Positions 1-14,285 of a stretch of DNA of 64,000 nucleotides are shown piece after piece; position 1 is the first letter of the stretch, and the number at the start of each line of letters is the position of its first letter. The notes beneath the pieces are model-generated. The model was not told where the DNA came from. It saw nothing but the letters and a program-made list of their open reading frames with translations, and searched no databases. The translations under genes and the position numbers were made by a program. Origin of the DNA: a virus; IMG/VR virus record IMGVR_UViG_3300045135_001049, positions 6,348 to 70,347 of that record; one strand, 5' to 3'.

Positions 1-84
1 AGCTTCCCATGCGGCTTGGGCTATATCTTTTGTCGGCTCGCCTTCGTAATGAAGGAAGTTTGTAAACCATTCTTCAAATGTCAT
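1..84 (-). CDS. small hypothetical protein (partial, runs off window)
   Basis: Read manually: MTFEEWFTNFLHYEGEPTKDIAQAAWEA...; start overlaps the end of the upstream ORF 74-277. Confidence 0.55.
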   Translation of the reverse strand, partial: MTFEEWFTNFLHYEGEPTKDIAQAAWEA

Positions 85-277
85 CACTCTTCTCCACTAC
101 AGGTATATCACGCCATTCTGTCTCTCGTACTCCTTCGTACCATTCAGACTCGTAACGCTCCCACTTCTGCTGAAGGATGCGACGAATTACGGTATCTTTA
201 GCAGAATCTCCGTAGTAATATCCCAATACGCTGCGTTCAACAAATTGTAATTCATTAGTTGGTATCCAATCAGTCAT
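74..277 (-). CDS. hypothetical protein
   Basis: 67-aa ORF; ATGA overlap with upstream ORF 274-453, GGAG SD. Confidence 0.65.
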   Translation of the reverse strand: MTDWIPTNELQFVERSVLGYYYGDSAKDTVIRRILQQKWERYESEWYEGVRETEWRDIPVVEKSDDI

Positions 278-453
278 ATAAAATACTCCGGGTATAGGTC
301 CATAATGTTTTCTTTAGTTATGCCTCTACGATTTAGTTCGGCACGAATGTATTCTAGCTCACGTTCCCAAGTGTCAGAAGTAACGTTGCTTGCTGCTCGT
401 CTAGCAATTTCCTGTACTAAATCTTCAGTTGAGTCATAAGCGTAACCAATCAT
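274..453 (-). CDS. hypothetical protein ending YPEYFI (not in ORF track)
   Basis: Read manually: MIGYAYDSTEDLVQEIARRAASNVTSDTWERELEYIRAELNRRGITKENIMDLYPEYFI*, 59 aa, fills the gap between 277 and 455 exactly. Confidence 0.75.
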   Translation of the reverse strand: MIGYAYDSTEDLVQEIARRAASNVTSDTWERELEYIRAELNRRGITKENIMDLYPEYFI

Positions 454-454
454 A

Positions 455-1711
455 TTATTTACCTGTTAATTTAATAGCTCGCATTTTTCCTTGATTCATT
501 TCAGGCATGATTTGACCGCCATCTTCGATAAGCCAGATAACTGGTTTCCCTAGTTTAAAGAAAGGCTGTATGTCATCTTCAAAAAGGTAGCCGTCAGTAG
601 TTACTACAAGAGCATCAAAATCAATCTTGTTTTTACGAAACTCTTCAATTGCTGGCGCTAGAATAGTACCACCACATCGAGTTCGTTCAACTGATCGGGA
701 GTCCCTGGTAAGCTTGCTTGGAGGACTAGCTTCAGTGTCCACTTGAACCATTGTTACTGGTGTATTAAACATATCGCAGATGCTAATGATCTCACCCCAT
801 AATTGTTTTAGAGCATCATCATTTACCGATCCCGACACATCTGAAATTACACCAAGTTCAAATACACGATTTTTAGTACGTCCTTTAATCCAGTTGGCAA
901 AAGGCATTCTTCTGTCTTTTCGGAGCAGTGTTTTTTTAATGTTGGCACGTTTGTTGCCTACAATAGCTCGTAAAACACGTTTCCAATCCACTTCTCGACG
1001 TACCATAAGGTTATCAAGCATGTTGGAATAATTACTAGGTAGAGTACCTTTTGATTTAATAGCCTCATTACCGGCTTTCTCCACCATATTTTTAGTTAAT
1101 TCTTGTTGAAGGGTTGGGTCCCCTTCTGTATCCATCCACAAATCGTGGTCATCCAGAGCAATTCCTCCAGCACCGTTACCTCCTTGACCTCCTTGTTGGA
1201 TCTGATCGTCATCAAGAATTTCGTAGTAGTACTCTGCTGTTTGATTCCAAAGAACATTTTCTTCTTTGGTTGGGATATTGTCTGGGTATAAGGCGTAACT
1301 AGGGAGATGATTTCTGGTAATTTCTTGGTTAAGAGCAGTATCACTAGCTACATTGTATTTCATAAAGTCTTTGTCGCCTACACGCAGCAAATGACCAAGC
1401 GCAATGTGGAGCATTTCATGTTTGATGATACCAATGCGATGTTCAAGTGGCATGTCTGAACAAAAACCCATAGTAGGTTCCATCTCACCGTCATCATTTT
1501 TAGCATAACCGATAACGGGAGATGGGTTAATGTACAAGTTGTAGTGGTCGTTTTTAAAGTTTACGCCAGCTGGAGCTTGTAATTGAGTTGAGAAGACCAC
1601 ACGACATTGAGCAAGTAAGTGCAAATAAAATACATATTCCCGAAAGTATGGGCTTGCTTGCATAGACATATTAGCAATAGCTTCGTCAAAAGCACTACGA
1701 TCAATAGTCAT
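455..1711 (-). CDS. HExxH metallopeptidase-like / vWA domain protein (DUF2201-type, N4 gp25-like)
   Basis: HEMLH zincin motif, Gly-rich linker and DDHDLW, C-terminal vWA MIDAS DVSGS, GGT and TDGY motifs. Confidence 0.88.
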   Translation of the reverse strand: MTIDRSAFDEAIANMSMQASPYFREYVFYLHLLAQCRVVFSTQLQAPAGVNFKNDHYNLYINPSPVIGYAKNDDGEMEPTMGFCSDMPLEHRIGIIKHEMLHIALGHLLRVGDKDFMKYNVASDTALNQEITRNHLPSYALYPDNIPTKEENVLWNQTAEYYYEILDDDQIQQGGQGGNGAGGIALDDHDLWMDTEGDPTLQQELTKNMVEKAGNEAIKSKGTLPSNYSNMLDNLMVRREVDWKRVLRAIVGNKRANIKKTLLRKDRRMPFANWIKGRTKNRVFELGVISDVSGSVNDDALKQLWGEIISICDMFNTPVTMVQVDTEASPPSKLTRDSRSVERTRCGGTILAPAIEEFRKNKIDFDALVVTTDGYLFEDDIQPFFKLGKPVIWLIEDGGQIMPEMNQGKMRAIKLTGK

Positions 1712-1730
1712 AGTAGTCTCCTTTTACATT

Positions 1731-2315
1731 TTAGTAGTGTTGTACTCGGTTACGTGCCTTAGCTTCACGAGTACCAGTGTAGTTACCTACCGCCTGGCCA
1801 GACTTTAGAGAGCCATTCTGGTTGAACACTCGGTTGTAAGTACCCCAAGTACCTGCAGACAGGCGAGTAACCATACCACGGTCTAGCTGTACTTCGCATG
1901 ATTCCTGAATCTCTGCTTCGCCAGCGTAACGAACGATAGTGTTCTTAGTAGGCTCTTTCTCACATACGTGGAATTCGTTGTAGTAGTTTTTAGACTTAAG
2001 GTACAAGCCGTTAGCTCGCATCAACCAGTTGATATCCATCTGAACAGCAACAAGTTTAAGGTTTGAACGGTGTACTTTTGCGTAAGAACCGGTGTTATAG
2101 ATCTTAGTAACGTTAAATAGTTTTACAAGATCAGCACGGCTGATAGTTGAACCTGCTTTAAACAGAGTTTTGTTTTTAGTAATGATATTATCGTAATCAA
2201 TCAGACGTTGCTGACGTTTTGTGATTTTACCCATACGACGAGAAGAAGCCCTAGATGTAGGAGCTGCTGCTGTAGTTGCGGTAATTACTTTTACTTTACG
2301 AGTTGATTTAGCCAT
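1731..2315 (-). CDS. basic hypothetical protein (possible nucleic-acid binding)
   Basis: K/R-rich N-terminus MAKSTRKVKV...; AAGGA SD before ATG 2315. Confidence 0.7.
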   Translation of the reverse strand: MAKSTRKVKVITATTAAAPTSRASSRRMGKITKRQQRLIDYDNIITKNKTLFKAGSTISRADLVKLFNVTKIYNTGSYAKVHRSNLKLVAVQMDINWLMRANGLYLKSKNYYNEFHVCEKEPTKNTIVRYAGEAEIQESCEVQLDRGMVTRLSAGTWGTYNRVFNQNGSLKSGQAVGNYTGTREAKARNRVQHY

Positions 2316-2343
2316 TTTAATGTTTTCCTTTGGTTTATTTAGT

Positions 2344-2547
2344 TTAATCTTCAATGCTTGCGTAGAATCGTGAAGTTCCCATCAAGTCATTCAAGTCATC
2401 ATAAGAAAGATGGTCTGCTGTTGCATAGTAATCGTCTGCAATAGACCCTTCCATGTAACCAAAACCTAACTTCTTAGACTTCTTTTTCTGAATTGCAGCG
2501 TGAGTCTGCAATTTCCGAATCTGTTTTTTGTTAATTTTCTTGCTCAT
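2344..2547 (-). CDS. hypothetical protein (basic N-half, acidic C-half)
   Basis: MSKKINKKQIRK...; GAGGA SD; overlapping operon organisation. Confidence 0.6.
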   Translation of the reverse strand: MSKKINKKQIRKLQTHAAIQKKKSKKLGFGYMEGSIADDYYATADHLSYDDLNDLMGTSRFYASIED

Positions 2548-2728
2548 AATCTTTTTCCTCAACAAATTGTGGACAACCAGATGCCATATTAGCAATAGCC
2601 ATAGGAGCACCTTCCCCGCCCCACCATGCTTCCGCATCATTGATTATTTGTGGCGTTAACTTTCTGCGACATTCCGTATTCCCGCATGGGGAATTACAAA
2701 AAGTCATATCTTTAAAGCCTATCATCAT
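2531..2728 (-). CDS. Cys-rich hypothetical protein
   Basis: DMTFCNSPCGNTECRR...CP pattern seen in small phage proteins. Confidence 0.6.
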   Translation of the reverse strand: MMIGFKDMTFCNSPCGNTECRRKLTPQIINDAEAWWGGEGAPMAIANMASGCPQFVEEKDYEQEN

Positions 2729-2951
2729 CTTCTCCTCTGAATGCAGCACGAAGTTTTTCGTTAAACTCTGCTTCCATACTCCGGTAAAACTCATTTACCT
2801 GAGCTTGTAGAGCAGCAGCCTGCACTAACATCCCTAGTTGAAAGGACGCATAGGCAACTACGCCTACGTAACCCAGCTGAATATAAGTTTCAGGGGTTAT
2901 GGTAATAAGATAAGCGCCAGCAATAGCAAGCACTAGATATATTAAACTCAT
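2712..2951 (-). CDS. hypothetical membrane protein
   Basis: Two hydrophobic segments at N-terminus. Confidence 0.6.
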   Translation of the reverse strand: MSLIYLVLAIAGAYLITITPETYIQLGYVGVVAYASFQLGMLVQAAALQAQVNEFYRSMEAEFNEKLRAAFRGEDDDRL

Positions 2952-3160
2952 TTCATTCCCTCGCATTTAACTCCCCATTCTTTATAGTCTGGGTGAATTC
3001 CCGCACATACATTTTCTTTATATGTACGTTCAAAAAGAACTGCGTCTTCGTAGTCCATTTTTCCTGCTATTCCCATAAAAGCCAAAAAAATAAGAACAAC
3101 GACAAGAAAAATAAGCCTTTCCATGATTTTTTGTGGAATTTGAGACATTATCTTCTCCAT
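2948..3160 (-). CDS. hypothetical membrane protein
   Basis: One TM segment followed by GKMDYEDA...C...PDY..C. Confidence 0.65.
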   Translation of the reverse strand: MEKIMSQIPQKIMERLIFLVVVLIFLAFMGIAGKMDYEDAVLFERTYKENVCAGIHPDYKEWGVKCEGMK

Positions 3161-3366
3161 TTAATTTCATGTTCATAAAAATCGTCGTTATCTAACGATC
3201 GATACTCCGTAATATTAATGTACCAGCCATACAGCATGTCCAAAGTACGTACATAAATAAGTACATCCTCCCATTCATACCCTTCTGAGACAAAAAATTC
3301 CTCTTTATCGACCATGTATTCTGGTTTAGTAATCCATACTGCCCAGCCAACAACTTTTGAGTCCAT
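3148..3366 (-). CDS. hypothetical protein
   Basis: MDSKVVGWAVW...; GGAG SD before ATG 3366. Confidence 0.55.
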   Translation of the reverse strand: MDSKVVGWAVWITKPEYMVDKEEFFVSEGYEWEDVLIYVRTLDMLYGWYINITEYRSLDNDDFYEHEIKWRR

Positions 3367-3483
3367 AACTTTCTCCAAATAAAAAAGAAAAATAGTTCCG
3401 TTTTTCCTAAGAATAAAAAATGGAACAATAATTTTCACTTGTATAGTAAGAATTAATCACTATATTCCCGCTTTATACAAAAG

Positions 3484-3489
3484 TATAAT
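3484..3489 (+). promoter_or_regulatory. sigma70-like -10 box (TATAAT) upstream of DUF1127 gene
   Basis: Consensus TATAAT 28 nt upstream of ATG 3517; AT-rich upstream, no clear -35. Confidence 0.5.
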
Positions 3490-3516
3490 ACACCCTCACA
3501 CACAAAGGAATTATTT

Positions 3517-3687
3517 ATGAAACACAAAATTAAAAGAACGATCCAACGCATTTTCATCTCAATGATTCGTGCGCAAGAAAAAAGAGCAGTCGAGCATATT
3601 CTTTACCGTCTTTCCAAACGAGAATTAGATGACATTGGTATTAGCCGTTCTGACATCTCTCGTATTGCTGCAGGTATGAAAAAATAA
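3517..3687 (+). CDS. DUF1127 (YjiS-like) small protein (not in ORF track)
   Basis: Read manually: MKHKIKRTIQRIFISMIRAQEKRAVEHILYRLSKRELDDIGISRSDISRIAAGMKK*; LxxLSxRELxDIGISRSDI is the DUF1127 signature; AAAGGA SD. Confidence 0.85.
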   Translation: MKHKIKRTIQRIFISMIRAQEKRAVEHILYRLSKRELDDIGISRSDISRIAAGMKK

Positions 3688-3712
3688 AGCCGATACCCCG
3701 AAGGGTACCGAC
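3680..3712 (-). terminator. rho-independent terminator (possibly bidirectional)
   Basis: Minus strand GTCGGTACCC-TTCG-GGGTATCGGC followed by TTTATTTTT. Confidence 0.8.
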
Positions 3713-3720
3713 TGACACAG

Positions 3721-3996
3721 TTAATCTAGTTCTAGTGACAACTGCTCTAAACGTTTGTTGATAATATTCAACGCATAGCTAGTTACTTCGATGGCATCTT
3801 CATCTACATAGCGATCGATTACCGATTCCTGTGAGATGGAGTCCATCCATTTATTGATTAGTCGACCGAATGCTTTCTTACGATTGCCTTCTGCAAGTGC
3901 TTCCACGATCACCTGATCATGTGAAGCCATGCTTACTAGACGGTTGACTACTTGCTTACGCTGTTTGTTTACTCGTGAACGACGTACTCTACGCAT
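3721..3996 (-). CDS. hypothetical protein, Arg-rich N-terminus
   Basis: 91-aa ORF with AAGGA SD, directly after RNAP subunit 2. Confidence 0.7.
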   Translation of the reverse strand: MRRVRRSRVNKQRKQVVNRLVSMASHDQVIVEALAEGNRKKAFGRLINKWMDSISQESVIDRYVDEDAIEVTSYALNIINKRLEQLSLELD

Positions 3997-4007
3997 GATA
4001 TTTTCCT

Positions 4008-5135
4008 TTACTTAAGTGCCATTGAGCTGGCTGTGAATGTACCTTCAAACGGTACTACTTTAGATTTTAGGTTATTCCATTCTTCTTGAGCTTTACCTGG
4101 TGAGATACCAATGCTAATGAAGAAGTCTTTTAGAATTTCTTTACGGTTCTCGTAAATCTTCTCTAGTTCTTCTCCATACCATTTACGCACATCAGCCGCA
4201 GCTGCAGGTGACACAATGAATGCGTCATGAATAGGAATACCCCATCCATACTTGTCCATAACTTTACCAATTACCTTATTGGCAACTTGGCTATCAAGGT
4301 TATGTACAAGCAAAGTCATGAAGTAACGCTTGAATTGCTTTAGATCTGGTACTCGTTTAGTATCCATATGCAATACAGTATTGTACTGCTTATCTTCGCT
4401 ATCCCAGATCTTGTACGCTCTAGCCTTCTCTCCTACATTTCGGTAGCGGTTACAGCTAACATCAAACTCTTCATTCCAGATCTTGACTTTCATTGAGCTC
4501 TTAGGTGCAGCATTGTTGATAATGAACTCCTTCAACATATTTGCTACACCGAATGGACCATCTGCCATTTCTTTAGTGTACAATGCAATATCTTCAGGAC
4601 CATACTGGATCCCGTTGTCTTGCCATAGTTCACCACATGTTTTGCTAGAGCCATACAGCATTGGTGTTGCTGCTTTCTTTAGCATTTGACGAGACATACC
4701 TTCTAGTTTCCAAGGATCTTCCAGAGTTTCTCCAATTACATTGGTCATCTCCATTAGACGCTTGTCACCCAATAGAATACCTTCATACTGCAGCATAGAT
4801 GCTGACGCATCCAGCTCAATAGGTACAGTCCATTTGTAGGTCTCATCACGGTAGTTGTGCTCACTGTGCACGGATAGGTGTCGTACTAGGCTAGATCCTT
4901 TCCCTTTCGGTATACGAAAGTAGTCGTCTAGCTCAGCATACAGACGCTCAAGCCACATGTTTTCATGTAGCTCTTTGCGATCTTCTTCATCTGCAAGATC
5001 AAGATCATGCAAGTTACCCATAATGTAGTCTGTTTGACCACATGCAACCTTAAGCTCAGTGTTACCTGAGCCTGGTTTGAATGAGCCTGATAGCTCTGCA
5101 ATGAATAGGAATACTGCTTCACATTCTGTACGCAT
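4008..5135 (-). CDS. N4-like RNA polymerase II, catalytic subunit (gp16-like, T7-type C-terminal half)
   Basis: Motif A PIELDASASMLQ, motif B RQMLKKAATPMLYGS, motif C IHDAF, plus VHNLDS. Confidence 0.92.
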   Translation of the reverse strand: MRTECEAVFLFIAELSGSFKPGSGNTELKVACGQTDYIMGNLHDLDLADEEDRKELHENMWLERLYAELDDYFRIPKGKGSSLVRHLSVHSEHNYRDETYKWTVPIELDASASMLQYEGILLGDKRLMEMTNVIGETLEDPWKLEGMSRQMLKKAATPMLYGSSKTCGELWQDNGIQYGPEDIALYTKEMADGPFGVANMLKEFIINNAAPKSSMKVKIWNEEFDVSCNRYRNVGEKARAYKIWDSEDKQYNTVLHMDTKRVPDLKQFKRYFMTLLVHNLDSQVANKVIGKVMDKYGWGIPIHDAFIVSPAAAADVRKWYGEELEKIYENRKEILKDFFISIGISPGKAQEEWNNLKSKVVPFEGTFTASSMALK

Positions 5136-5151
5136 GACGTACCTCCATTTG

Positions 5152-5898
5152 TTAATCTTCGTAAGTGATGACCAGTGCAGACCTGAAGTCTTTACTACTG
5201 ATCGGATTAGCCACTTTCTTTAATGCCTGACTAATAGCACGTCCACGGCTATCACTGATGCTATCACCTGTAGTGAAAGTCTCATACCTGTGATAACTAT
5301 GCCAATCGAAGATTCCACAAGATACTTTATCGTAACTTGCATCATCAGATTGCATTTCTGGATACTCCTGACGGATCTTATCCATAGATTTAGTAAGATT
5401 CAGCTTGACAGCCTTCTCATACTCTTTCAGTTTTGCCATATCGTATCCAAACTGAGTATTACCAGCATCACGGAATCCTGTACGCACTAATCCAGTACGT
5501 TTAGTCTTACCATTCTGCCTCACTAGTTTAGATGCCCTAGCTTCACGACACTCAAGCAGATATTTATCGTACTTGTAGTTTGCTTTGATGCTATTAAGCT
5601 CATCCACATCTACATAGTCGTACAATTTATCAGCATTAAGCTTCAGTGATGCCCATTTACGACCTGTTAGACTACGACTTTCTACCCAATTATGGGCACA
5701 TAGACGTCGTACAATGTCGTTATAGAGCTTTGGTCCCAGTTTGTCGTACCAGAACAGTCCGTTGGTATCGCTATCATTAAGGAAATTCATCCATACTGCT
5801 TTCCAGAATGAGCGGATTTCATTTTCCTGCTCTGGATAATCAGTAAAGATAGCTGAACCTGGATATTCTAGCCGTCCTTCAAGTAGTTGCTCACGCAT
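5152..5898 (-). CDS. N4-like RNA polymerase II, subunit 1 (gp15-like)
   Basis: C-terminal DSRGRA (DxRGR motif of T7-type RNAPs); adjacent to the catalytic subunit. Confidence 0.82.
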   Translation of the reverse strand: MREQLLEGRLEYPGSAIFTDYPEQENEIRSFWKAVWMNFLNDSDTNGLFWYDKLGPKLYNDIVRRLCAHNWVESRSLTGRKWASLKLNADKLYDYVDVDELNSIKANYKYDKYLLECREARASKLVRQNGKTKRTGLVRTGFRDAGNTQFGYDMAKLKEYEKAVKLNLTKSMDKIRQEYPEMQSDDASYDKVSCGIFDWHSYHRYETFTTGDSISDSRGRAISQALKKVANPISSKDFRSALVITYED

Positions 5899-5926
5899 GA
5901 GACTATCTCCTGAGTTTAGTTTACAT

Positions 5927-5955
5927 AAAAGAGTAGAGGGACTTTCGCCCCTCTA
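5927..5955 (-). terminator. rho-independent terminator
   Basis: Minus strand TAGAGGGG-CGAAAG-TCCCTCTA then CTCTTTT. Confidence 0.7.
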
Positions 5956-5968
5956 GGTGTTACGCGTA

Positions 5969-6616
5969 TTACAGTACAAATTCCACTTCTGCGATTGCTT
6001 CTTGAGCTTGCTCGTAGGCTTTCTCAGCAGTTTCCTGTGCACGTAGGAACTCTTTCTCAAAGTTCTCTTCGGTAATTGCTGACACATCAGCTACTACCCC
6101 TAGTTCCGATTGCAACACGCTAAGCACATTACGTACTGCAGGCACGTTGTACGGTACTTCGTCTACAATCACGTTGTTGTTACGTGAGTAGTAAGCTGGT
6201 GTACCGAATGCAGCTACTGTCTTCTCAATCAGTTCCATGTTCAGACCTGTCTCAATGAGAAGCAGATCTTTGTGTTCCTGGCAAGAGTACAGAATACCTG
6301 TAGCAATCTGATACATCAGGTCAACCTGTGTACCATAGTTGTAGCGGTGCTTACCTGCCCACTTACGCATATCATCTGTTTTACGGTTCTTGATAGGCAT
6401 ACTGCTAACCAGACCTTCACAGATACCGACCATTGACTGAAGTTTCTCAGTCTGTAGTCGACTAGCTTCCATTGCTGCACGTGCATTCAGTAGTTCTTCA
6501 CTACCTTCACGCTCAATAGTAGCTTGCAACAGTGCAACCTGTACTTTCTCACGGAGTTTCTCCGCATTGGCTGCTTTGATTGCTTCTGCTTTTGCTTTCA
6601 ATTCTTCGATGTTCAT
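5969..6616 (-). CDS. hypothetical coiled-coil protein
   Basis: 215-aa ORF, AAGGA SD, helical A/E/K-rich termini. Confidence 0.8.
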   Translation of the reverse strand: MNIEELKAKAEAIKAANAEKLREKVQVALLQATIEREGSEELLNARAAMEASRLQTEKLQSMVGICEGLVSSMPIKNRKTDDMRKWAGKHRYNYGTQVDLMYQIATGILYSCQEHKDLLLIETGLNMELIEKTVAAFGTPAYYSRNNNVIVDEVPYNVPAVRNVLSVLQSELGVVADVSAITEENFEKEFLRAQETAEKAYEQAQEAIAEVEFVL

Positions 6617-6654
6617 GTGATATTTTCCTTTTGTTTCAGTTAGTTAAGTTGTTT

Positions 6655-6924
6655 TTACACCATGACCCATGGACATGAGTCAGGTGTATATAGTATTTCC
6701 ATTCCATCATAGTCTTCTATGAAGTAACGGTCTTCGTCTATCTCGACAATAATGATATCCCCTACATTTTTGCAAGATTCGACACATTGGATAACTAATG
6801 GATCATGACGTTCTAGACCATAGTAATCTCGGTCAACTACACCATGACTTGCCATCCATATCCGCATTTCTTCGGTGAACATGAATCCACCCCAGTTAGC
6901 ATTGATTGCCACCTTAGTCGCCAT
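6655..6924 (-). CDS. conserved phage hypothetical protein
   Basis: KVAINANWGGF...RHDPLVIQCVE...IEDYDGME pattern is a widespread phage family. Confidence 0.75.
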   Translation of the reverse strand: MATKVAINANWGGFMFTEEMRIWMASHGVVDRDYYGLERHDPLVIQCVESCKNVGDIIIVEIDEDRYFIEDYDGMEILYTPDSCPWVMV

Positions 6925-7035
6925 ACACTAGCTCCCAATGTTGATACGTTACCTTAACCATCAGTACTTCAAGCGATGACTTCTCTTTCGAGTAACACAG
7001 ACGTCTCCCTGTGTTCTTATCCACTAGATACCACA

Positions 7036-7251
7036 TTACCATCTCCTTCTAGTTTGCTCATCCAGATCTTCGAACCAAGTATCCTGTTCGTAATCAAGCT
7101 CTAGATCTGCACCTGACTCAGATGCATAGGTTTCACATTCTATCTGGATCATGTCCAGCATATGCTCACATTCATTCGGATCATAATCTTCAGCATTACC
7201 CGCTGCTAGATAATCTCTAAACATATCCACAATGTATTCAGGATATCTCAT
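7036..7251 (-). CDS. acidic hypothetical protein
   Basis: 71-aa ORF starting MRYPEY; TAATG coupling. Confidence 0.65.
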   Translation of the reverse strand: MRYPEYIVDMFRDYLAAGNAEDYDPNECEHMLDMIQIECETYASESGADLELDYEQDTWFEDLDEQTRRRW

Positions 7252-7421
7252 TACATGTACTCCTCGTCGTCTATCTTACGAACGGTAAAGGTTGATTCAT
7301 ACTGTCCAGTCTCTTGGACATACTTACACATTGCAATGTAAGCCTCTTCTCCTGACGAGAATAAGCCAATCACTAGTTCTTTACTGTTATCCATTGGTTG
7401 CACTAGTTCATATGCTGTCAT
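7251..7421 (-). CDS. hypothetical protein (not in ORF track)
   Basis: Read manually: MTAYELVQPMDNSKELVIGLFSSGEEAYIAM...DDEEYM*, 56 aa, coupled by ATGA and TAATG overlaps. Confidence 0.65.
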   Translation of the reverse strand: MTAYELVQPMDNSKELVIGLFSSGEEAYIAMCKYVQETGQYESTFTVRKIDDEEYM

Positions 7422-7729
7422 ATAAATTCCTCTGGGTATTCCTCATAATAGCTGTCCACTAGATCTTCTACTTCGTCTATGTAAACCAAGTCTTCGTTAC
7501 CGAGCACCACACGTAATGCTGCTCGTTTACCGTTAGTAGTTTTATATTCAGAGCAAGAAGATTCGTTTATATACTTAATTTTTACAATGATCATACTGTA
7601 TATATCTGCCATTCTTAACGAAGTCGCAACTATATAGTCTATACGGTCATCTTCATGAGCATAGTCATACCAATCAATCTTACCTGTAGTTCTTTCCACA
7701 TAATAGTTAAAGCCATTATGATTTATCAT
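7418..7729 (-). CDS. hypothetical protein ending YPEEFI
   Basis: 103-aa ORF with AGGAG SD. Confidence 0.7.
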   Translation of the reverse strand: MINHNGFNYYVERTTGKIDWYDYAHEDDRIDYIVATSLRMADIYSMIIVKIKYINESSCSEYKTTNGKRAALRVVLGNEDLVYIDEVEDLVDSYYEEYPEEFI

Positions 7730-8125
7730 AGGCTATCTCCTATAAAAGGTCAGCAGTGTTAAAGTATACTACAACGTCACCTGTTCTATCTGAGGTGTAC
7801 CATACTTTGCATTCGTTATCTTGCTGACGCAGGTTGATGTAGACACCTTTAGGTATCTTGAAATACTTACGTGCCAGCATCTTGATCAGTGTTCTGTGGT
7901 TGATAGTTTCCATGTTGTTTACCTGTATGTGTTGTACTTAGGATTATGCAGATTTTGCATAATTAGGTGTGCTTAAGTTGTTGATAATATTACTTAGTAA
8001 AGTATGTGTACGAAGATGTACTCAAATACTAAGTGACTATCTGTATGATTAAGCAGGTCAAAATTGGTAGGAAATGGAGAATACTAGCCCAGATTGCTCT
8101 GGGACTAGCATATAATTGCGTGTAC

Positions 8126-8356
8126 TTACTCGTCTACGCGGAAATGTTGCATGATTTCCCCATGAGAGTACAAAGTCTTTCCATCAGTTCTGTGTTTGAA
8201 TGACTCAAAGTTTTCTGATCGATCGATTACTGCATCCCCAATAATCTTTTCTGCCTGTACCTGTGTAGTACTACGTAGCATTACTGCTAACGTGTTCAAT
8301 ACACTGGAGAATTTCCACAGTAGGACAATGCCTACTACTAACATTAATAGTTCCAT
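8126..8356 (-). CDS. hypothetical membrane protein
   Basis: MELLMLVVGIVLLWKF N-terminal TM; GAGGA SD before ATG 8356. Confidence 0.65.
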   Translation of the reverse strand: MELLMLVVGIVLLWKFSSVLNTLAVMLRSTTQVQAEKIIGDAVIDRSENFESFKHRTDGKTLYSHGEIMQHFRVDE

Positions 8357-8489
8357 TTGTTTTCCTCTTGAGTTAATGATCATTAAGATAGTCAGACTAT
8401 CCCACACAACCGTGACCAAGCCTGAACTGGCACCCCCCTTCGCTAGCGCTCAGGTGGCTATCACAACAGTGTCGTGTCGTGTCAGTGTC

Positions 8490-8520
8490 AAAAAAAAAAG
8501 GTGAGGACCCGAAGGTCCCC
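8490..8520 (-). terminator. rho-independent terminator
   Basis: Minus strand GGGGACC-TTCG-GGTCCTC then ACC and T10. Confidence 0.8.
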
Positions 8521-8767
8521 AACTCTTATAGTACTGTGATTGCGGCAGTGAATCCTGCGATGAATCCTAGCGATGCTCCGACTGTGAAGTAGAGTACCAC
8601 TAGTTCATTTGCTGCCTTACGTGCTCGACGAGTTACCATTGTTCTTTTCTCCTGTATGTACCATTGTTACTACACCATTAACGACGTAGTATAGACGTTG
8701 AGTGCCAGCTGTTTGACGCTGAACTTCTTTACATTTAGTAGCCATAGTCTGGTTCATGATGTACTCC

Positions 8768-9061
8768 TTAGCGTACTGACTTGATGTAAGCAACTAGGTG
8801 GTTTGCTGCTACAAGTGCTTCTACACCTGTGGCCTCTACACCGATTGCCTTGAGAAGTTCGTGGCTTGTCTCTACTCGTGAGATAGCTGCCTGACCTTCT
8901 GCGTTCTGTGCAAGCATACGACCTGCACCTGCTAGAGTACCGATTGCAGCGAACACTTCGCCCACTGCACCAGTAGTTTCTGAGTACACCATGCCGAGTC
9001 CACCTTTCTTAGGTTCAGCGATTGGTGGTAGTTGGATTGAGTTGTTCTGTTTAGTAGCCAT
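8768..9061 (-). CDS. early hypothetical protein
   Basis: 97-aa ORF, TAATG-coupled, GGAGG SD. Confidence 0.7.
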   Translation of the reverse strand: MATKQNNSIQLPPIAEPKKGGLGMVYSETTGAVGEVFAAIGTLAGAGRMLAQNAEGQAAISRVETSHELLKAIGVEATGVEALVAANHLVAYIKSVR

Positions 9062-9381
9062 TAGTAAGCCTCCACTTTAGCTAGTTGGGTAGTCACTGGC
9101 ATGTCATCTTTAACAAGCTCAGCGATGATGTAGGTAACCTCGTCCTTATCCCTACGGAATCCAGTCACAGCTTCAGTGAGCCACTCAGGATTGTGAGATG
9201 CGATGAGGTTGAGGTTGATGTTGTTGAGCTTGATCTGCTCTTCACCTTCACGATTCACACTTGCGTCTAAGCGAAGTACGAACTGTGCTGGTAGTTTAAC
9301 ATCGGTTTTTGTTTGGAAGACCTTGATAGGTTTGCTCTTCACGTTGCCGTTAATTGCACGGACTAAGATGGTATCAGCCAT
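9061..9381 (-). CDS. early hypothetical protein (first gene of leftward unit)
   Basis: MADTILVRA...; AGGAG SD before ATG 9381. Confidence 0.7.
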   Translation of the reverse strand: MADTILVRAINGNVKSKPIKVFQTKTDVKLPAQFVLRLDASVNREGEEQIKLNNINLNLIASHNPEWLTEAVTGFRRDKDEVTYIIAELVKDDMPVTTQLAKVEAY

Positions 9382-9439
9382 GGTATCTCTCCTGTTGGCG
9401 TTAATGGTACAGCCCCTGTGGCCACACCCGTACACAATA

Positions 9440-9960
9440 CTCAGGACTTAGAACACGCACCCCCCTCAGAAAAAAGGGACGTTACATCAGCAACCACGGG
9501 GGGTAGTCGGTCGCGTAAGCGGACGAGGGGGAGTAATGCCCTCTTACAAAATTTTAAAAATTTCCCACATGAAGTTGTTGAGAACTGTTCTCATTTAGGT
9601 ATGCAGAATTGCACACCTAGAATTTTTTAGGGGGTGTGCAGAATTGCGCACCTTGTATATATAAATATATGTAGTATGTTTTGCGCACCCTGTATCTTTA
9701 TACAGTGAAACTACCCTTTCACAAACACCCAACTAGTGAAAATATAATTGGTATATTAATCCCTAGTTCCCTTCCTTACAGGGAATACAGTCCCATATTT
9801 GCTTGACCCATACATAACCCATTTGACACTATAATGTCCTTTATATGACTCATTACGTCACAATAGACATAATAATGTCCCTTATCTGTCACCTTAGCTA
9901 AGCTGTGTTAGTTTAAAATAATTTAGGTTATTGTCCTGTAATGTCCGTGCAAGTACTGTG
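9440..9960. other. divergent intergenic region; probable genome terminus / terminal-repeat junction
   Basis: Strand switch between early genes (leftward) and late genes (rightward); in N4 gene order the genome ends lie between these blocks; rich in inverted and direct repeats. Confidence 0.55.
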
Positions 9961-9966
9961 CAAGGG

Positions 9967-9995
9967 TTGCGCAATAAGTGTGCAAGGGTTATAAT
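9967..9995 (+). promoter_or_regulatory. sigma70-like promoter
   Basis: TTGCGC-17 nt-TATAAT upstream of AGGAG/ATG 10022. Confidence 0.65.
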
Positions 9996-10021
9996 GCATA
10001 CATAGAAACTAGGAGATTGAT

Positions 10022-10204
10022 ATGCAAGTTATTGAAGAAGTAGAGCACGAAGATGGTTCGGCTACCTACACAATTGATATGACTGAGGAAGAGCGTAAGG
10101 CTGTAATGGAGCAAGGCCTATTATGGATGGTCGTTGCTGGTATTACTGAAGTTACCCCTACTGCAGTACTAGAAGCGTACATGCAGGAGAAAGATAATGG
10201 ATAA
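10022..10204 (+). CDS. hypothetical protein
   Basis: EHEDGSAT motif common in small phage ORFs; AGGAG SD. Confidence 0.7.
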   Translation: MQVIEEVEHEDGSATYTIDMTEEERKAVMEQGLLWMVVAGITEVTPTAVLEAYMQEKDNG

Positions 10205-10418
10205 TAACCAAACTATAATTGACTGGAAAGCAATAGAGAGTACTGCTCCTGGCAGCGTTATTGAAATACCAGAATACTCAGAATGGGTTTGTTACCTATT
10301 TGGAGGTAAACCGGATAACGGCATTATATGGCGACCACTAAAAGGAGAACATCCTAATTGGTTCTGGCGTAAGATGCAGTATTTTTGTTTTGGTAATAAG
10401 TGGGTAAAAGATGAGTAA
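10197..10418 (+). CDS. hypothetical protein
   Basis: PNWFWRKMQYFCFGNKW motif; overlapping operon. Confidence 0.7.
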   Translation: MDNNQTIIDWKAIESTAPGSVIEIPEYSEWVCYLFGGKPDNGIIWRPLKGEHPNWFWRKMQYFCFGNKWVKDE

Positions 10419-10593
10419 CCTAGTTAGATTTGTAAGAGTAGATGGTAATTTTAGAGATACTGTTTATATCAACCCTGATCGTGTTGCATACATAAAAGAG
10501 GGGAACTACCCCACCATATACCTGGATGCCGGTTACTTCATGAAGGTAGAAGGAAGTATAAAAGAAATAACAGATAAACTAGTAGGTAACTAA
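10411..10593 (+). CDS. hypothetical protein (FlbD-like small fold)
   Basis: VYINPDRVAYI...TIYL...VEGSIKEI pattern. Confidence 0.6.
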   Translation: MSNLVRFVRVDGNFRDTVYINPDRVAYIKEGNYPTIYLDAGYFMKVEGSIKEITDKLVGN

Positions 10594-10594
10594 G

Positions 10595-10981
10595 ATGAGT
10601 GTATCGTACTCTACTAACTGGATGGGTCCTGTATCTATGCAGTGGTACAAAGATCGTGGACTTACTGTTGGTATCTGCGAGAAACTAGGGGAAGACAGAG
10701 TGTTCTTTCCTAAGGGCTACAAAGCAGGTGACTGGTGGGAATACGATCAGATTACTACTAATTACTGTGCTGGACGTATTGATATCCGAGATAGTAGCAA
10801 GGAAGGTTACGATGGATGGGATGAATACAGCCTAGCTCCTATGCACTGCGAAGACTGGAATGCTCTTAGCGACTTCCTCTGGGATTTGCATGGTGAGACT
10901 GTAATACCGTACGATTCTTTAATCATGTTGTTTGAAGCGTGGTACGGCAAGAAAATTAGATGGTGGATTGATGAAGAGTAA
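10595..10981 (+). CDS. hypothetical protein
   Basis: 128-aa ORF in a tightly packed operon. Confidence 0.7.
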   Translation: MSVSYSTNWMGPVSMQWYKDRGLTVGICEKLGEDRVFFPKGYKAGDWWEYDQITTNYCAGRIDIRDSSKEGYDGWDEYSLAPMHCEDWNALSDFLWDLHGETVIPYDSLIMLFEAWYGKKIRWWIDEE

Positions 10982-11037
10982 ACTGTATTGGCAGCTCCGT
11001 AAGGCAATGACCTACAAGAGTATGAAGATGGGCTCTA

Positions 11038-11325
11038 TTGTTACTAGCTTTCGCCCTCACAAGTATGCACCAATTAAAATGCGTACTTACCCATGTAACA
11101 GATGGGGGGCGGGGTACTGGAGAAACAAACCTAGGAGATCAGTACTTGACTAAGAGATACGAAATTGCAGACGTCAGATTTAATAGTGGTATGGGCGCTG
11201 TCCTGTGTGACATATGTGGCATCATTATTAAGACTGGGTTTGACCATGAAGACAAACAGCACTTATGTCCAAGTTGCGCACTGGATGAGTTAGCAAGGCT
11301 GACACAGGAAATGGGATTAGAATGA
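11038..11325 (+). CDS. small Zn-finger protein (start probably downstream of 11038)
   Basis: RFNSGMGAVLCDICGIIIK...HLCPSC: two CxxC motifs. Confidence 0.55.
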   Translation: MLLAFALTSMHQLKCVLTHVTDGGRGTGETNLGDQYLTKRYEIADVRFNSGMGAVLCDICGIIIKTGFDHEDKQHLCPSCALDELARLTQEMGLE

Positions 11326-11528
11326 TTGCACACTTACCCAAACATTGGGTTGCCGGTATTTGTAAAGAGGAAGAGTGGGTTGGAGAGTTCTACGCTACCC
11401 CTGATGAGTTACTGGTATGGTGTGAAGACGAGTTTCAAGATGAGCTTGTCGTGCAATTAGTATTAGATCTGTGTGATGCACAGAAAGTATATGAAGAATG
11501 GTGGGAGAGAGTAAGGAAAAATGACTGA
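11322..11528 (+). CDS. hypothetical protein
   Basis: 68-aa ORF overlapping both neighbours. Confidence 0.55.
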   Translation: MIAHLPKHWVAGICKEEEWVGEFYATPDELLVWCEDEFQDELVVQLVLDLCDAQKVYEEWWERVRKND

Positions 11529-12240
11529 TTATTATGAAATACACCCATTAGCTAATATCGTAGCAATGGCAGGAACACGAGAGCAGCAAGCTCTTACACA
11601 AGACATATTGCGCAATGGACAGAACGAACCTGCTGTGTTGTGGCGTGGTAAGATTGTAGACGGTAGATGTAGACAGCTTGCATGTACAACGCTGGGCATT
11701 CCTCTGGAGACTCGTGCGTTAGGTGACAAGCTTACAGAAGAAGAAGTAGCCAAGGTTGTTAAGAGTTTGAATACTCGCCGTAACTTGACAGAAACACAGA
11801 AGATCGTTAGTGGTTACCTAGATCAACAACGAACCGGACAAACAAACGGGCAAATTGCAGAGGAATGGGCGGTATCCGTTCGTAGTCTGCAGAACTTCAA
11901 GCTAGTAGCTACGGCACGTCCAGAACTAGTGGAGCCTTTGTTTAACGGTGACAGTGTTGTGGTCATTGATCCGGACAAAGGTTACGAGGTTACTACTAAT
12001 AAAGTTAACACCTTAGCTCGTATTGTTAAGATGGAGCAGGAGAAAGGTCGGGTAAAAGTAGTGAAGCCTGAAGAAGTAGAAGCAATGCAGTACAGCGTTA
12101 ACAACTTGATTAGTACTGAACTAGGCAGAGCAGAACACAGAGACCTAGTGGCTGCTTTTAAACACACTGGTAATAAAGAGCAGATGTTTAGCGCAATGGC
12201 TGCTGAGCTGATGAACTACAAATACCAGGTTGCTGAATAA
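11521..12240 (+). CDS. ParB/Srx N-terminal domain protein with HTH
   Basis: IHPLA...DILRNGQNEP...IVDGRCRQLAC...SLNTRRNLTETQK (ParB-like) followed by QIAEEWAVSVRSLQ (HTH). Confidence 0.8.
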   Translation: MTDYYEIHPLANIVAMAGTREQQALTQDILRNGQNEPAVLWRGKIVDGRCRQLACTTLGIPLETRALGDKLTEEEVAKVVKSLNTRRNLTETQKIVSGYLDQQRTGQTNGQIAEEWAVSVRSLQNFKLVATARPELVEPLFNGDSVVVIDPDKGYEVTTNKVNTLARIVKMEQEKGRVKVVKPEEVEAMQYSVNNLISTELGRAEHRDLVAAFKHTGNKEQMFSAMAAELMNYKYQVAE

Positions 12241-12455
12241 TGACTAGCGAAGAAGCAACAAAGCATAAGCTTAGACAGATACGTGATATGTATATGGTTA
12301 TGGGTACCCCATTTAATGAAGACTATGAATGGGGGTTCTATAATGGTGTAGAAATTGCACTGGCTATGTTAGAGCAGCGTCCTGCGTTTTATATAGACAA
12401 AGAAGGTAAGCATAACCCACAAGACATAGCTAACTACCCTGAGTATTTCCTTTAG
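12240..12455 (+). CDS. hypothetical protein ending YPEYFL
   Basis: YEWGFYNGVEIALAMLEQRPAFY conserved-looking motif; TAATG-coupled. Confidence 0.7.
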   Translation: MTSEEATKHKLRQIRDMYMVMGTPFNEDYEWGFYNGVEIALAMLEQRPAFYIDKEGKHNPQDIANYPEYFL

Positions 12456-12465
12456 GAATAAGTAA

Positions 12466-12474
12466 TGCTATAAT
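12466..12474 (+). promoter_or_regulatory. extended -10 promoter
   Basis: TGcTATAAT. Confidence 0.55.
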
Positions 12475-12646
12475 GGACACATTTATTTAACCCAAGAAAC
12501 CCTTATAAATGAGTGCGTTATGCAAGAAGAATTAGAAAAAAGACTACGCAGAGAAAATGGTAGCTTAACCTACGAAGAGATTTTAGAAATTTTAGAGGCA
12601 GAACTATATGACAGTATTGATAGTCCGTACAAGCCTCTAAACTTTC

Positions 12647-13084
12647 ATGACGATGATGAAGATTTCTAAGGAAGGCCTTAGTCTAGAAGAAGATGTAGGC
12701 ATACTGTATTTAGTATACTTTGAGCTAGATGGTAAGCAGCTAGTTAAAATTGGCGTAACAGCTAGGACTATAGAAGAACGAGTATCAGAAATACTCATCA
12801 GCATATTTAAGAAATACCGAGAGTTCCCTTACTGCAGGCCTAAGAGATTTCGTAAGACTGGGAACGTATACGAAAAAGAGGCTCAGCTTCATGCATACTT
12901 TAAAGAGTATAGCTATGAGCCCGCCAACAAGTTTAGTGGATCAACTGAATTCTTTGACATTGACCTGGATAAGGTTGTTGAGGTGTATGAGAATCTACTA
13001 GATGGGAAGGAATTACATGAAAGTGGACAAGAGCAAGATCAGAACTCCGGACGAGGAGTATGCGTATCTATGGGCGAAGCTTGA
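12647..13084 (+). CDS. GIY-YIG superfamily nuclease (T5orf172/MUG113-like)
   Basis: LYLVYF...VKIGVT...R...EAQLH...SGSTEFF. Confidence 0.8.
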   Translation: MTMMKISKEGLSLEEDVGILYLVYFELDGKQLVKIGVTARTIEERVSEILISIFKKYREFPYCRPKRFRKTGNVYEKEAQLHAYFKEYSYEPANKFSGSTEFFDIDLDKVVEVYENLLDGKELHESGQEQDQNSGRGVCVSMGEA

Positions 13085-13235
13085 CACTATAGGAAACTTC
13101 TTTGCATGGGAAGTACACCCTAATGTTGTACGTAATGCAGACATGCAACGCAAAAAGATTTGGAAAAAACTTCAATTACTGGTTGACTCACCAGAATTCC
13201 AGGAATATAATCCATGGTATAAAGTCAATTCATAA
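13017..13235 (+). CDS. hypothetical protein
   Basis: AAGGA SD before ATG 13017; overlaps the tail of the GIY-YIG ORF. Confidence 0.55.
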   Translation: MKVDKSKIRTPDEEYAYLWAKLDTIGNFFAWEVHPNVVRNADMQRKKIWKKLQLLVDSPEFQEYNPWYKVNS

Positions 13236-13281
13236 GACCCTCCCCCCCAATAATAATAATATACTCTCTCCTTGTTTTTAC

Positions 13282-13308
13282 AGCCCCTTGCTTAGGGGCT
13301 TATTTTTT
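13282..13308 (+). terminator. rho-independent terminator
   Basis: AGCCCCT-TGCTT-AGGGGCT then TATTTTTT. Confidence 0.8.
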
Positions 13309-13357
13309 GTTATACTCCAGAAAAACATACACCCCTATACATATAATGGAGTAAATA

Positions 13358-14080
13358 ATGGGTCAGCTACTGACAATTGATGAAGTCAAACAGGCAATGC
13401 CTAAGAAAAAGAACTTCATTACCCAAGAAGCAGTGGATATTATTAACAAATCTATGAATGATCCTGAATTTCAGGGTGAATCACTGCTACAAACTGCGTC
13501 AACTTACGAGGCAGTATTAAAAGGTGCGCGAGCATCGGTACCAGAGTACCTAAATGCCATTAGATTCTGCGCATATATGACAACAAATGACTCAAATTAC
13601 ACGGAAGCTTACAAAAAAGTGTTTGCTGACCGTGATTTTGTGAAAGATCGCATTAATCTACCAACAACAGACCCAAAATACGCAGAATTAACCTCTGCAG
13701 CGTCAAGATACCGTAGAACTAAGCTAGTAACAGACATTCTTACTGCAAGTCAAGTACCATTAGACCTAATTTTTACCGGCCATCGCTACAAAGCTATTGG
13801 AATTCTTGCGGATGTTATGGAAAATGGGCGATATGACCGCGATCGTATCAATGCTGCTAAAGAATTACTTGCTGCCACCAAAGGACCAGACAACGTTAAG
13901 ATTGAATTAGACGTTGGTGTTAGTGAATCTAGTGCAGTACAGCAGCTTAACGACCAACTTGCAGAGATTGCAGGTCGATCACTTAAGCATCTTGAAGCAG
14001 GAGCCACTAGTTTGAACGAACTTGGTGCAATGAAAGTAGTTGATGACGACATCATTGAAGGTGAGTTTACAAATGGTTAA
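13358..14080 (+). CDS. N4 gp69-like protein (probable terminase small subunit)
   Basis: Position upstream of terminase; YLNAIRFC...AYKKVF...DRINAAKELL...KIELDVG pattern of N4 gp69 homologues. Confidence 0.75.
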   Translation: MGQLLTIDEVKQAMPKKKNFITQEAVDIINKSMNDPEFQGESLLQTASTYEAVLKGARASVPEYLNAIRFCAYMTTNDSNYTEAYKKVFADRDFVKDRINLPTTDPKYAELTSAASRYRRTKLVTDILTASQVPLDLIFTGHRYKAIGILADVMENGRYDRDRINAAKELLAATKGPDNVKIELDVGVSESSAVQQLNDQLAEIAGRSLKHLEAGATSLNELGAMKVVDDDIIEGEFTNG

Positions 14081-14285
14081 TTCTACTACAACTGCAGTAA
14101 CAGGTTCTATTACATCTAGTCCTTACTTAGTACAGGGTGATATTATGCCTGCTTCATTACATATCGAGGAAGAAGGTAGTATTAGCTTAGGCGATGACTT
14201 TACTATTAGTGTCAAAGAGTTGCGAGCTTGTATTAAAGCAATGCGTGATATTGCACGTCAAGAGTATCCTGAGGACTTTATCTAA
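14073..14285 (+). CDS. hypothetical protein ending YPEDFI
   Basis: Overlaps the gp69-like stop and the terminase start (TAATG). Confidence 0.6.
   Translation: MVNSTTTAVTGSITSSPYLVQGDIMPASLHIEEEGSISLGDDFTISVKELRACIKAMRDIARQEYPEDFI

Follow-up and report, generated by a model that had tools for sequence, protein, structure and literature searches.

Four open reading frames with a common C-terminal end

The DNA analyzed here is a stretch of 64,000 nucleotides (the window; positions 6,348 to 70,347 of IMG/VR virus record IMGVR_UViG_3300045135_001049), which lies within a virus contig of 70,347 bp (G000). An earlier note, made from the sequence alone, had drawn attention to four small open reading frames (ORFs) whose products end in YPE[Y/E/D]F[I/L] and had suggested that this end, here called the tag, is a short linear motif through which several phage proteins bind one hub. 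All four ORFs were recovered with these ends:

274-453, minus strand: tagged ORF of 59 amino acids (aa), ending LYPEYFI; 1 nucleotide (nt) downstream of a gene for a zincin metallopeptidase fused to a VWA domain (zincin-VWA); its stop overlaps the next start (ATGA)
7418-7729, minus strand: tagged ORF of 103 aa, with EYPEEFI at its end; overlaps ORF 7251-7421 as ATGA
12240-12455, plus strand: tagged ORF of 71 aa, family A (phrog_23395), ending NYPEYFL; directly after a ParB-like gene, with no coupled gene
14073-14285, plus strand: tagged ORF, family B, 70 aa (81 aa with the TTG at 14040 as start), ending EYPEDFI; between an N4 gp69-like gene and the large terminase gene

A six-frame search of the entire 70,347-bp genome gave exactly four occurrences of the pattern YPE.F, and in all of them Ile or Leu and then a stop codon come next. 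When the last 30 residues of the 97 ORFs of this contig were shuffled, a mean of 5e-5 matches was obtained, and four or more matches were reached in 0 of 20,000 shuffles; the comparison with shuffled C termini that the earlier note had proposed thus came out in its favor. The earlier note had also mentioned that ORF 7036-7251 (minus strand) begins MRYPEY. The loose motif [YHFW]PE..[ILVM] has one nonterminal match in the 21,945 residues encoded by the contig, compared with about 1.7 expected by a rough composition estimate. The MRYPEY start is a nonterminal match at chance level, outside the system.

Among the relatives of the contig are AD45-P1 to P4, N4-like phages of Alteromonas that share 79% DNA identity with it in the terminase region, and N4 gp68-like, gp69-like, and gp59-like genes are present in annotated relatives. 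The contig is a fragment: relatives measure 96 to 104 kb, the replication module known from them is absent from it, and ORF 60587-64000 (plus strand; at least 1138 aa) is unfinished at the contig end, close to which it carries acidic EEDF-type repeats. Because the contig is incomplete, the four tagged ORFs are a lower bound. No homologue of ORF 274-453 was found in PHROGs, in a phage collection, or by tblastn against cultured phages. ORF 7418-7729 had no homologue by tblastn against cultured phages and no usable match in the ESM Atlas, and ORF 14073-14285 had no tblastn match among cultured phages.

Extent, composition, and carriers of the tag

For the survey of further genomes, a strict tail was counted as [YHFW]PE..[ILVM] at the C terminus of an ORF, and the reversed motif served as the control. 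The numbers of strict-tailed ORFs were as follows:

G000 (the contig of the window): 4 of 97
G001 (complete N4-like relative, 103.5 kb, terminal repeats): 48 of 173
G002: 7 of 141
G003: 14 of 112
G004: 17 of 72
G005: 21 of 47
G006 (224 kb, 28% GC): 30 of 381
G007 (28% GC): 13 of 174
AD45-P1: 2 of 146

The reversed motif closed no ORF in any genome counted. In the complete relative G001, the wider consensus [Y/H/F]-P-E-[L/Y/E]-[F/L]-[I/V/L]-COOH closes 51 of 173 ORFs, and a pattern scan gave 31 matches, whereas its reversed control gave 0. The cultured Vibrio myovirus phiKT1024 (OM249648), which was reached via its zincin-VWA and only afterwards seen to be rich in tags, gave 87+3 pattern matches versus 3 in the control, and PE..[ILVMF] closes 76 of its 336 ORFs. 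The tail counts observed in G000, G001, and phiKT1024 were each reached in 0 of 20,000 shuffles. Tag arrays also were seen in 28%-GC jumbo contigs; together, the tagged phages span contigs of 27 to 28% GC and phages of 35 to 44% GC, and their known hosts are Vibrio and Alteromonas. The observation is real, highly nonrandom, and much larger in scale than first noted.

Nine cultured phages (AR9, N4, KVP40, T4, SBP1, ZC03, BF17, 2.275.O, and PhiImVa-1) were used as controls. In these, the DNA pattern was about as frequent as its reverse (AR9, 4 versus 7; KVP40, 5 versus 5; T4, 10 versus 7), and the matches of N4 (7 versus 3) and ZC03 (9 versus 3) mostly were without the aromatic and hydrophobic last residues. 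A scan of prokaryotes (one genome per species) yielded at least 120 matching stretches, 80 of which were examined. Seventy-nine of these 80 were lone, chance-level matches, and the other was a phage-like array (L186), with 10 tails within 8 kb of a 27%-GC contig that had been binned with an Ignavibacteria metagenome-assembled genome. The motif was not described in the literature searched (supplements aside), where peptide-string and concept searches gave nothing relevant, and the genome papers of phiTY18 and Pv27 (supplements aside) make no mention of a C-terminal motif. We also noted seven pattern matches at 38 to 66 kb of G021 (the IMG/VR contig behind L301) that end in Phe and not in Ile (PELFF, PEIFF, and similar); the tag may have a variant form there.

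Alignment of 55 tails revealed Pro at position -5 and Glu at position -4 in all 55. Position -6 is Tyr in 36, His in 10, and Phe in 6; position -3 is Leu in 32 and Tyr in 13; position -2 is Phe in 34 and Leu in 11; and position -1 is Ile in 52. There is a weaker preference for Leu, Ile, or Phe at -10 and for Lys at -9, with weak conservation out to about -13, and the tails of phiKT1024 show the same residue profile. The tag therefore is best described as a hexapeptide core within a C-terminal tag of some 14 residues, with a hydrophobic residue at -10 and K/R at -9, closed by the wider consensus given above. Its position is strict. The ORFs of ten genomes contain the motif 226 times: 205 copies are at the extreme C terminus, none is 1 to 10 residues away from it, 3 are at 11 to 30, and 18 are deeper.

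The proteins that carry the tag have little else in common, as the earlier note had maintained for the four in the window. With the last 8 residues removed, the 55 tailed proteins fell into 51 clusters by blastp (E 1e-3), a criterion that covers remote, profile-level homology only in part. Most of the bodies match nothing, and some match unrelated Pfam families (DUF7448, nucleotidyltransferase-like). They are mostly small (66 to 94 aa in G001) and range up to 379 aa. A single paralogous family, considered as a source of the tails, is not supported by the blastp clusters at this threshold or by the distinct Pfam domains. Within families the tail is mostly retained: among 22 multimember families with a tailed protein, 19 are tailed throughout and 3 are mixed, and families common to podovirus, myovirus, and jumbo contigs retain the tail.

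In 25 IMG/VR loci retrieved around terminase homologues, the orthologues of the two plus-strand ORFs retain the tail in varied form. The post-ParB orthologues (family A) end in FPEYFL, YPEFFL, YPEHFV, HPEYFL, and FPEYFV, and the preterminase orthologues (family B) end in YPEEFI, HPEEFI, MPEEFI, RPEDFV, and YPEEFL. Across 15 family A orthologues only M1, G32, N35, E38, P67, E68, and F70 are invariant, and across 7 family B orthologues (24 to 42% identity) only G40, P66, E67, and F69 are; in both families the tail is the most conserved part. The converse case, in which homologues gain or lose the tail, is provided by the tailed DUF7448 protein of G001. Cultured phages of Bacillus, Pseudomonas, Escherichia, and other hosts encode 158 homologues of this protein. 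Alignments with them stop at residues 112 to 125 of 141, and all three homologues inspected were without the extension and the tail. The tail of this protein therefore is an add-on module of about 25 residues.

The codons point in the same direction. The four tails of the window use CCG, CCA, CCT, and CCT for Pro, GAG four times for Glu, and the stops TGA, TGA, TAG, and TAA. In a larger set of 253 tails (82 with an ATGA overlap and 171 without an overlapping start), all four Pro codons, both Glu codons, six Leu codons, TTT and TTC, ATA, ATT, and ATC, and the three stop codons are found, which bears out the synonymous variation from which the earlier note had argued for selection on the peptide. 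Given this synonymous diversity, the retention of the tail at 24 to 42% identity, its strict terminality, and the tail-less homologues, we conclude that selection acts on the peptide and that the tag is strictly terminal and modular.

Candidate readers and competing explanations

We consider it probable that the motif is a recognition tag acting at the peptide level, modular and strictly C-terminal, on unrelated accessory proteins. It would have been appended to many unrelated, mostly small, nonstructural accessory proteins in a gene pool common to certain marine phages. The free C terminus, the invariant Pro-Glu, and the hydrophobic end would be read by one common receptor, and this receptor would allow the collective handling of phage proteins, be it docking, remodeling, clipping, or timed removal. 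The hub idea of the earlier note thus survives in part: a shared C-terminal signal under peptide selection stands, backed by the codons, the tails of orthologues, the terminal position, and the tail-less DUF7448 homologues, and neither the scale of the tagging nor a candidate reader encoded by the phage had been foreseen. That candidate consists of two proteins:

455-1711, minus strand: zincin (HExxH) metallopeptidase (DUF2201_N) fused to a VWA domain with an intact metal ion-dependent adhesion site (MIDAS) (PF13203, PF09967); candidate reader or processor
Genome positions 4146-5465, minus strand, outside the window: MoxR-like AAA+ (AAA_5) ATPase (PF07728), partner of the zincin-VWA

Co-occurrence and synteny make this pair the leading candidate for the reader, and we put it forward tentatively. 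The two products have the makeup of a MoxR AAA+/VWA pair, that is, an AAA_5-type ATPase and a VWA partner with MIDAS residues. The HExxH motif and the MIDAS (DxSxS..T..D) residues D291, S293, S295, T349, and D373 are invariant in an alignment of 54 sequences. An all-against-all protein comparison was made of ten genomes, nine of them nonfragment and tag-bearing, and the only families present in all nine were the AAA+ ATPase and the zincin-VWA. The nine pair-bearing tagged genomes comprise N4-like podoviruses, a Vibrio myovirus, and 28%-GC jumbo contigs. The zincin-VWA also is encoded in G009 (235 kb, tag-bearing) and in the bin that holds the L186 array.

Phylogenetic analysis placed the zincin-VWA proteins of all nine tag-bearing phages in one clade (94/92) that cuts across the podovirus, myovirus, and jumbo lineages and includes G009 and G016, with phiKT1024 nested among the N4-like members (99/99*). 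Six tail-less phages fall outside the tagged clade; five of them form a clade of their own (100/99*), and AR9 is the outgroup. At 50 IMG/VR loci, a tail was found within 10 kb of the zincin-VWA gene in 21 of 33 cases where the protein had at least 31% identity versus 0 of 17 cases with 30% or less (Fisher p = 8e-6). In both of the tag-poor genomes G000 and G002, the ORF directly downstream of the zincin-VWA gene is tagged, for which the naive joint chance is 0.002. According to the hypothesis that co-occurrence and synteny suggest, the MIDAS site of the VWA domain would bind the invariant Glu, and the peptidase or ATPase would then act on the client. The fullest form of the proposal is that of a virus-encoded tagging system in which up to about 30% of ORFs carry a portable C-terminal address, the MoxR/zincin-VWA pair reads, clips, remodels, or removes these clients on schedule, and tag and reader have been cotransferred horizontally among podoviruses, myoviruses, and jumbo phages; this we regard as speculative.

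Several points weigh against the interpretation. The link between reader and tag amounts to one clade and one evolutionary event and is not statistically independent; a common marine gene pool could account for it. Presence of the pair does not suffice for tails, and tail numbers are not proportional to it: AD45-P1 carries the pair with only 2 to 3 tails, few tails, if any, are present in G018 and G020, which belong to the clade (3 versus 0 and 4 versus 1 pattern matches), 12 of the 33 clade loci are without a tail within 10 kb, and six cultured phages with more distant pairs carry no tails. PhoH is almost as widely shared (8 of 10 genomes), and the ATPase tree is unresolved, with long branches. 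The AlphaFold2 model of the family A protein (predicted local distance difference test [pLDDT] score, 92.5) shows the tail (residues 61 to 70; pLDDT, 94) as a short helix after H60-65, predicted to be helical and not disordered, which would suit a role in capping the fold no less than that of a free docking peptide. Finally, a host protein could just as well be the reader. No pair is seen in the small tag-rich fragments (G005, G008, G010, G011, and G013 to G015), which at 5 to 25% completeness are uninformative on this point. Cofolding of the zincin-VWA (54-row alignment) with the family A protein (15 rows) in the presence of Mg and Zn gave scores of 0.21 and 0.00 against a mark of 0.32 and speaks neither for nor against binding. 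Searches of the PDB sequences with phmmer gave no matches for the zincin-VWA or the ATPase, and a Foldseek search with the family A model against the PDB and BFVD gave nothing at E <= 1e-3.

PhoH, a common marine-phage gene, was set aside as a reader; it is absent from AD45-P1. The PhoH-like ATPase occurs as a form of 236 to 254 aa in the tag-poor G000 (genome positions 2036-2800, minus strand, outside the window; L098) and G002 and as a long form of 455 to 475 aa in the tag-rich G001, G003, G004, G005, G006, and phiKT1024, so that its length tracks tag abundance. A tagged family of 277 to 379 aa lies directly downstream of the MoxR-like ATPase gene in G004, phiKT1024, and G003 (L066, 7155-7988; phiKT1024, 129212-130351; L079, 12627-13493). 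Some members have weak nucleotidyltransferase-like matches, and tblastn with the 277-aa protein gave only a partial Lactobacillus phage match. This family could be a third conserved component. The zincin-VWA is labeled "HNH endonuclease" in RefSeq for several phage records (e.g., AD45-P1, NC_021532). This label probably is a propagated misannotation, because Pfam finds only the metallopeptidase and VWA domains.

The main rival to a phage-encoded reader is a conserved host machine. Here the tag would be a degron for an AAA+ protease (ClpXP, ClpAP, FtsH, or Lon) or would address another host hub and would give early and accessory proteins a common fate. C-terminal degrons of the ssrA type are terminal and nonpolar, and the tag is strictly terminal with three nonpolar last residues; the hub idea of the earlier note would fit, as would the Vibrio and Alteromonas hosts known for tagged phages. 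Such a reader would have to be highly conserved, however, since the spread in GC content of the tagged contigs and phages probably means distant hosts. Moreover, the prokaryote scan found no cellular tag arrays among the 80 matches examined and gave no sign of a cellular motif that is being mimicked, and the tag matches none of the ssrA (LAA), clamp (QL[SD]LF), or SSB (DDDIPF) consensus sequences. We judge a host reader to be unlikely, although a serious contender.

A poorer prospect is that the tail is a structural cap, a short C-terminal helix-Pro-turn that packs against small domains and stabilizes them, derived from one rapidly diverging superfamily or a reused module and having no common partner. 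The confidently modeled, helical tail of family A, the similarly small size of most tailed proteins in G001, and the weak conservation to about -13 would be expected of such a cap, yet a high pLDDT score may merely mirror alignment conservation. The bodies are unrelated by blastp, contain different Pfam domains, and reach 379 aa, and other phages have a DUF7448 body that folds with no tail attached. Nor does a cap need the very last position, which is where 205 of 226 occurrences lie, with none in the adjoining ten residues. We therefore consider this explanation improbable.

The two remaining explanations concern the genes that follow the tagged ORFs. Three of the four tails in the window overlap or abut the next start, as ATGA at 277 and 7421 and as TAATG at 14285. 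The genes at these junctions are the following:

74-277, minus strand: gene following tagged ORF 274-453, with its start overlapping the stop of that ORF; GGAG is formed by the tag codons CCG-GAG
7251-7421, minus strand: ATGA-coupled downstream gene; the tag codons GAG-GAA give GAGGA
14285-15850, plus strand: large terminase (N4 gp68-like), beginning at the TAATG junction with the tagged ORF

At all three junctions the Pro-Glu codons provide GGAG- or GAGG-type sequences, as the earlier note had pointed out, and it was right that the copy ending at 12455 is uncoupled, being separated by a 64-nt gap from the next ORF. Among the 253 tails, those with an ATGA overlap use GAG in 70 of 82 and CCG in 50 of 82 and form GGAG in 45. 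Tails without an overlap use GAG in 25 of 171 (GAA in 146) and CCG in 11 of 171 (other Pro codons in 160), in a background where GAG accounts for 25% of usage and CCG for 10% of Pro codons genome-wide. The contrast is highly significant for both codons (Fisher p = 2e-28 for GAG and 1e-20 for CCG), and the peptide is equally conserved in tails without an overlap. Since GAG and CCG are enriched only at overlaps, the synonymous sites are tuned for a ribosome-binding site where one is needed; the Shine-Dalgarno sequence is a secondary overlay on codon choice and not the cause of the motif.

A role in translation, with the nascent C-terminal peptide modulating termination or reinitiation in packed gene arrays, would predict selection on the amino acids. 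It would also agree with a motif that always occupies the last six codons and with a start that overlaps or lies within 20 nt of the stop in 208 of 253 tails. However, the other 45 tails, with no start within 20 nt, keep the motif, among them the 12455 copy and its orthologues. The tails make use of all three stop codons, phages without the motif are normally tightly packed too, and no stalling peptide is known to resemble the tag. We regard this explanation as very improbable. The alternative that the earlier note itself had raised, in which the motif is a by-product of a coupling cassette whose Pro-Glu codons serve as the Shine-Dalgarno sequence of the next gene, is refuted as the cause: it accounts for the GAG and CCG bias of the ATGA class, to which type three of the four copies in the window belong, but the 171 nonoverlapping tails keep the peptide with near genome-wide codon usage, and a Shine-Dalgarno sequence does not explain Tyr, His, or Phe at -6, Phe or Leu at -2, or Ile at -1.

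Neighboring genes, implications, and comparison with known systems

Further genes of the window were noted in passing. The adjacent genes 4008-5135 and 5152-5898 (both minus strand) are conserved in G002 and AD45-P1, with weak matches of the first to RNA polymerase in PHROGs; the two may encode the subunits of an N4-type middle RNA polymerase. ORF 12647-13084 (plus strand, 145 aa), between the ParB-like and gp69-like genes, is a homologue of an AD45-P1 gene annotated as a GIY-YIG nuclease and probably encodes a homing endonuclease. Directly after the tagged ORF 12240-12455 lies ORF 12520-12669 (plus strand, 49 aa), which has no family match and whose C terminus, HDDDEDF, is an acidic run with a terminal Phe. 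This end resembles the acidic C-terminal tails of phage and bacterial single-stranded DNA-binding proteins (SSBs).

In marine phages both related and unrelated to this one, up to about 30% of ORFs end in the strictly C-terminal tag, which points to a previously undescribed tagging system. If the tag is a true common address, it would give a single point of experimental access to dozens of phage proteins whose functions are unknown, and viruses would be able to run their own proteome-wide C-terminal tagging scheme. If the MoxR/zincin-VWA pair is the reader, the tagged proteins would be the first client set for this widespread, uncharacterized phage pair. Cultured carriers of the tag exist (Vibrio phage phiKT1024 and its relatives and the Alteromonas AD45 phages), and the hypothesis therefore is directly testable. 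On the practical side, accessory genes of this class can be recognized in marine viromes simply by the tag sequence, and the tag itself is a candidate for a portable means of controlling proteins in marine bacteria.

The sorting tags recognized by sortase (LPXTG), exosortase (PEP-CTERM), and rhombosortase (GlyGly-CTERM) consist of a motif, a transmembrane helix, and a basic cluster and act at the membrane. Like these, the phage tag is one short C-terminal signature on many unrelated proteins of a genome. The sorting tags occur only with a particular enzyme family, often encoded adjacently, whereas the link of the phage tag to an enzyme is merely correlative. Furthermore, the phage motif makes up the last six residues, so that no transmembrane helix or basic cluster can follow it; its carriers are viral and its proteins appear cytoplasmic, and no hydrophobic helix was noticed in their C termini, although none was searched for.

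The ssrA tag recognized by ClpX, the C terminus of MuA, the DDDIPF tail of SSB, and the tails of T4 gp33, gp55, and gp43 that bind the gp45 clamp are C-terminal degrons or docking tails that need a free end. The T4 proteins offer a parallel, as several unrelated phage proteins share an extreme C-terminal motif, in that case for one hub. The extreme C-terminal position expected of an ssrA/ClpX-type degron is found here as well (205 of 226 occurrences at distance 0 and none at 1 to 10), and the tag ends in [L/Y/E]-[F/L]-I where ssrA ends in LAA. Unlike these degrons and docking tails, the tag has an invariant P-E core, no acidic run, no Gln, and no LAA, and it occurs on a far larger scale, with tens of proteins and as many as about 30% of the ORFs of a genome carrying it. 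The sliding-clamp motif was rejected on the residues at -6 (Tyr 36, His 10, Phe 6) and -5 (Pro in 55 of 55) and the lack of Gln-Leu, and an SSB-type tail was rejected because the tag has a single invariant Glu and a terminal I/V/L.

In two further systems a short shared peptide takes unrelated proteins to a common destination: the T4 capsid-targeting sequence, which is N-terminal and removed by the prohead protease, and encapsulin cargo peptides, which bind an HK97-fold shell. Unlike their cargo, the tagged genes lie mostly in nonstructural, early- or middle-type regions, with no link to the capsid. MoxR AAA+/VWA chaperone pairs such as RavA-ViaA and CbbQ-CbbO have VWA MIDAS sites that bind an acidic residue of the client. 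A MoxR/vWA-metallopeptidase pair, in which the metallopeptidase is N-terminal, was noted in jumbo phages, with a role in virion assembly as a guess, and no client tag is mentioned in the part of that paper drawn on here (Iyer et al. 2021, PMC7824862). Unlike MoxR/VWA pairs as described so far, the phage pair would be linked to a C-terminal client tag, a link proposed here from gene content and gene order; like RavA-ViaA and CbbQ-CbbO, the virus sampled by the window encodes both a MoxR-type ATPase and a VWA partner, with the HExxH and MIDAS residues of the latter invariant.

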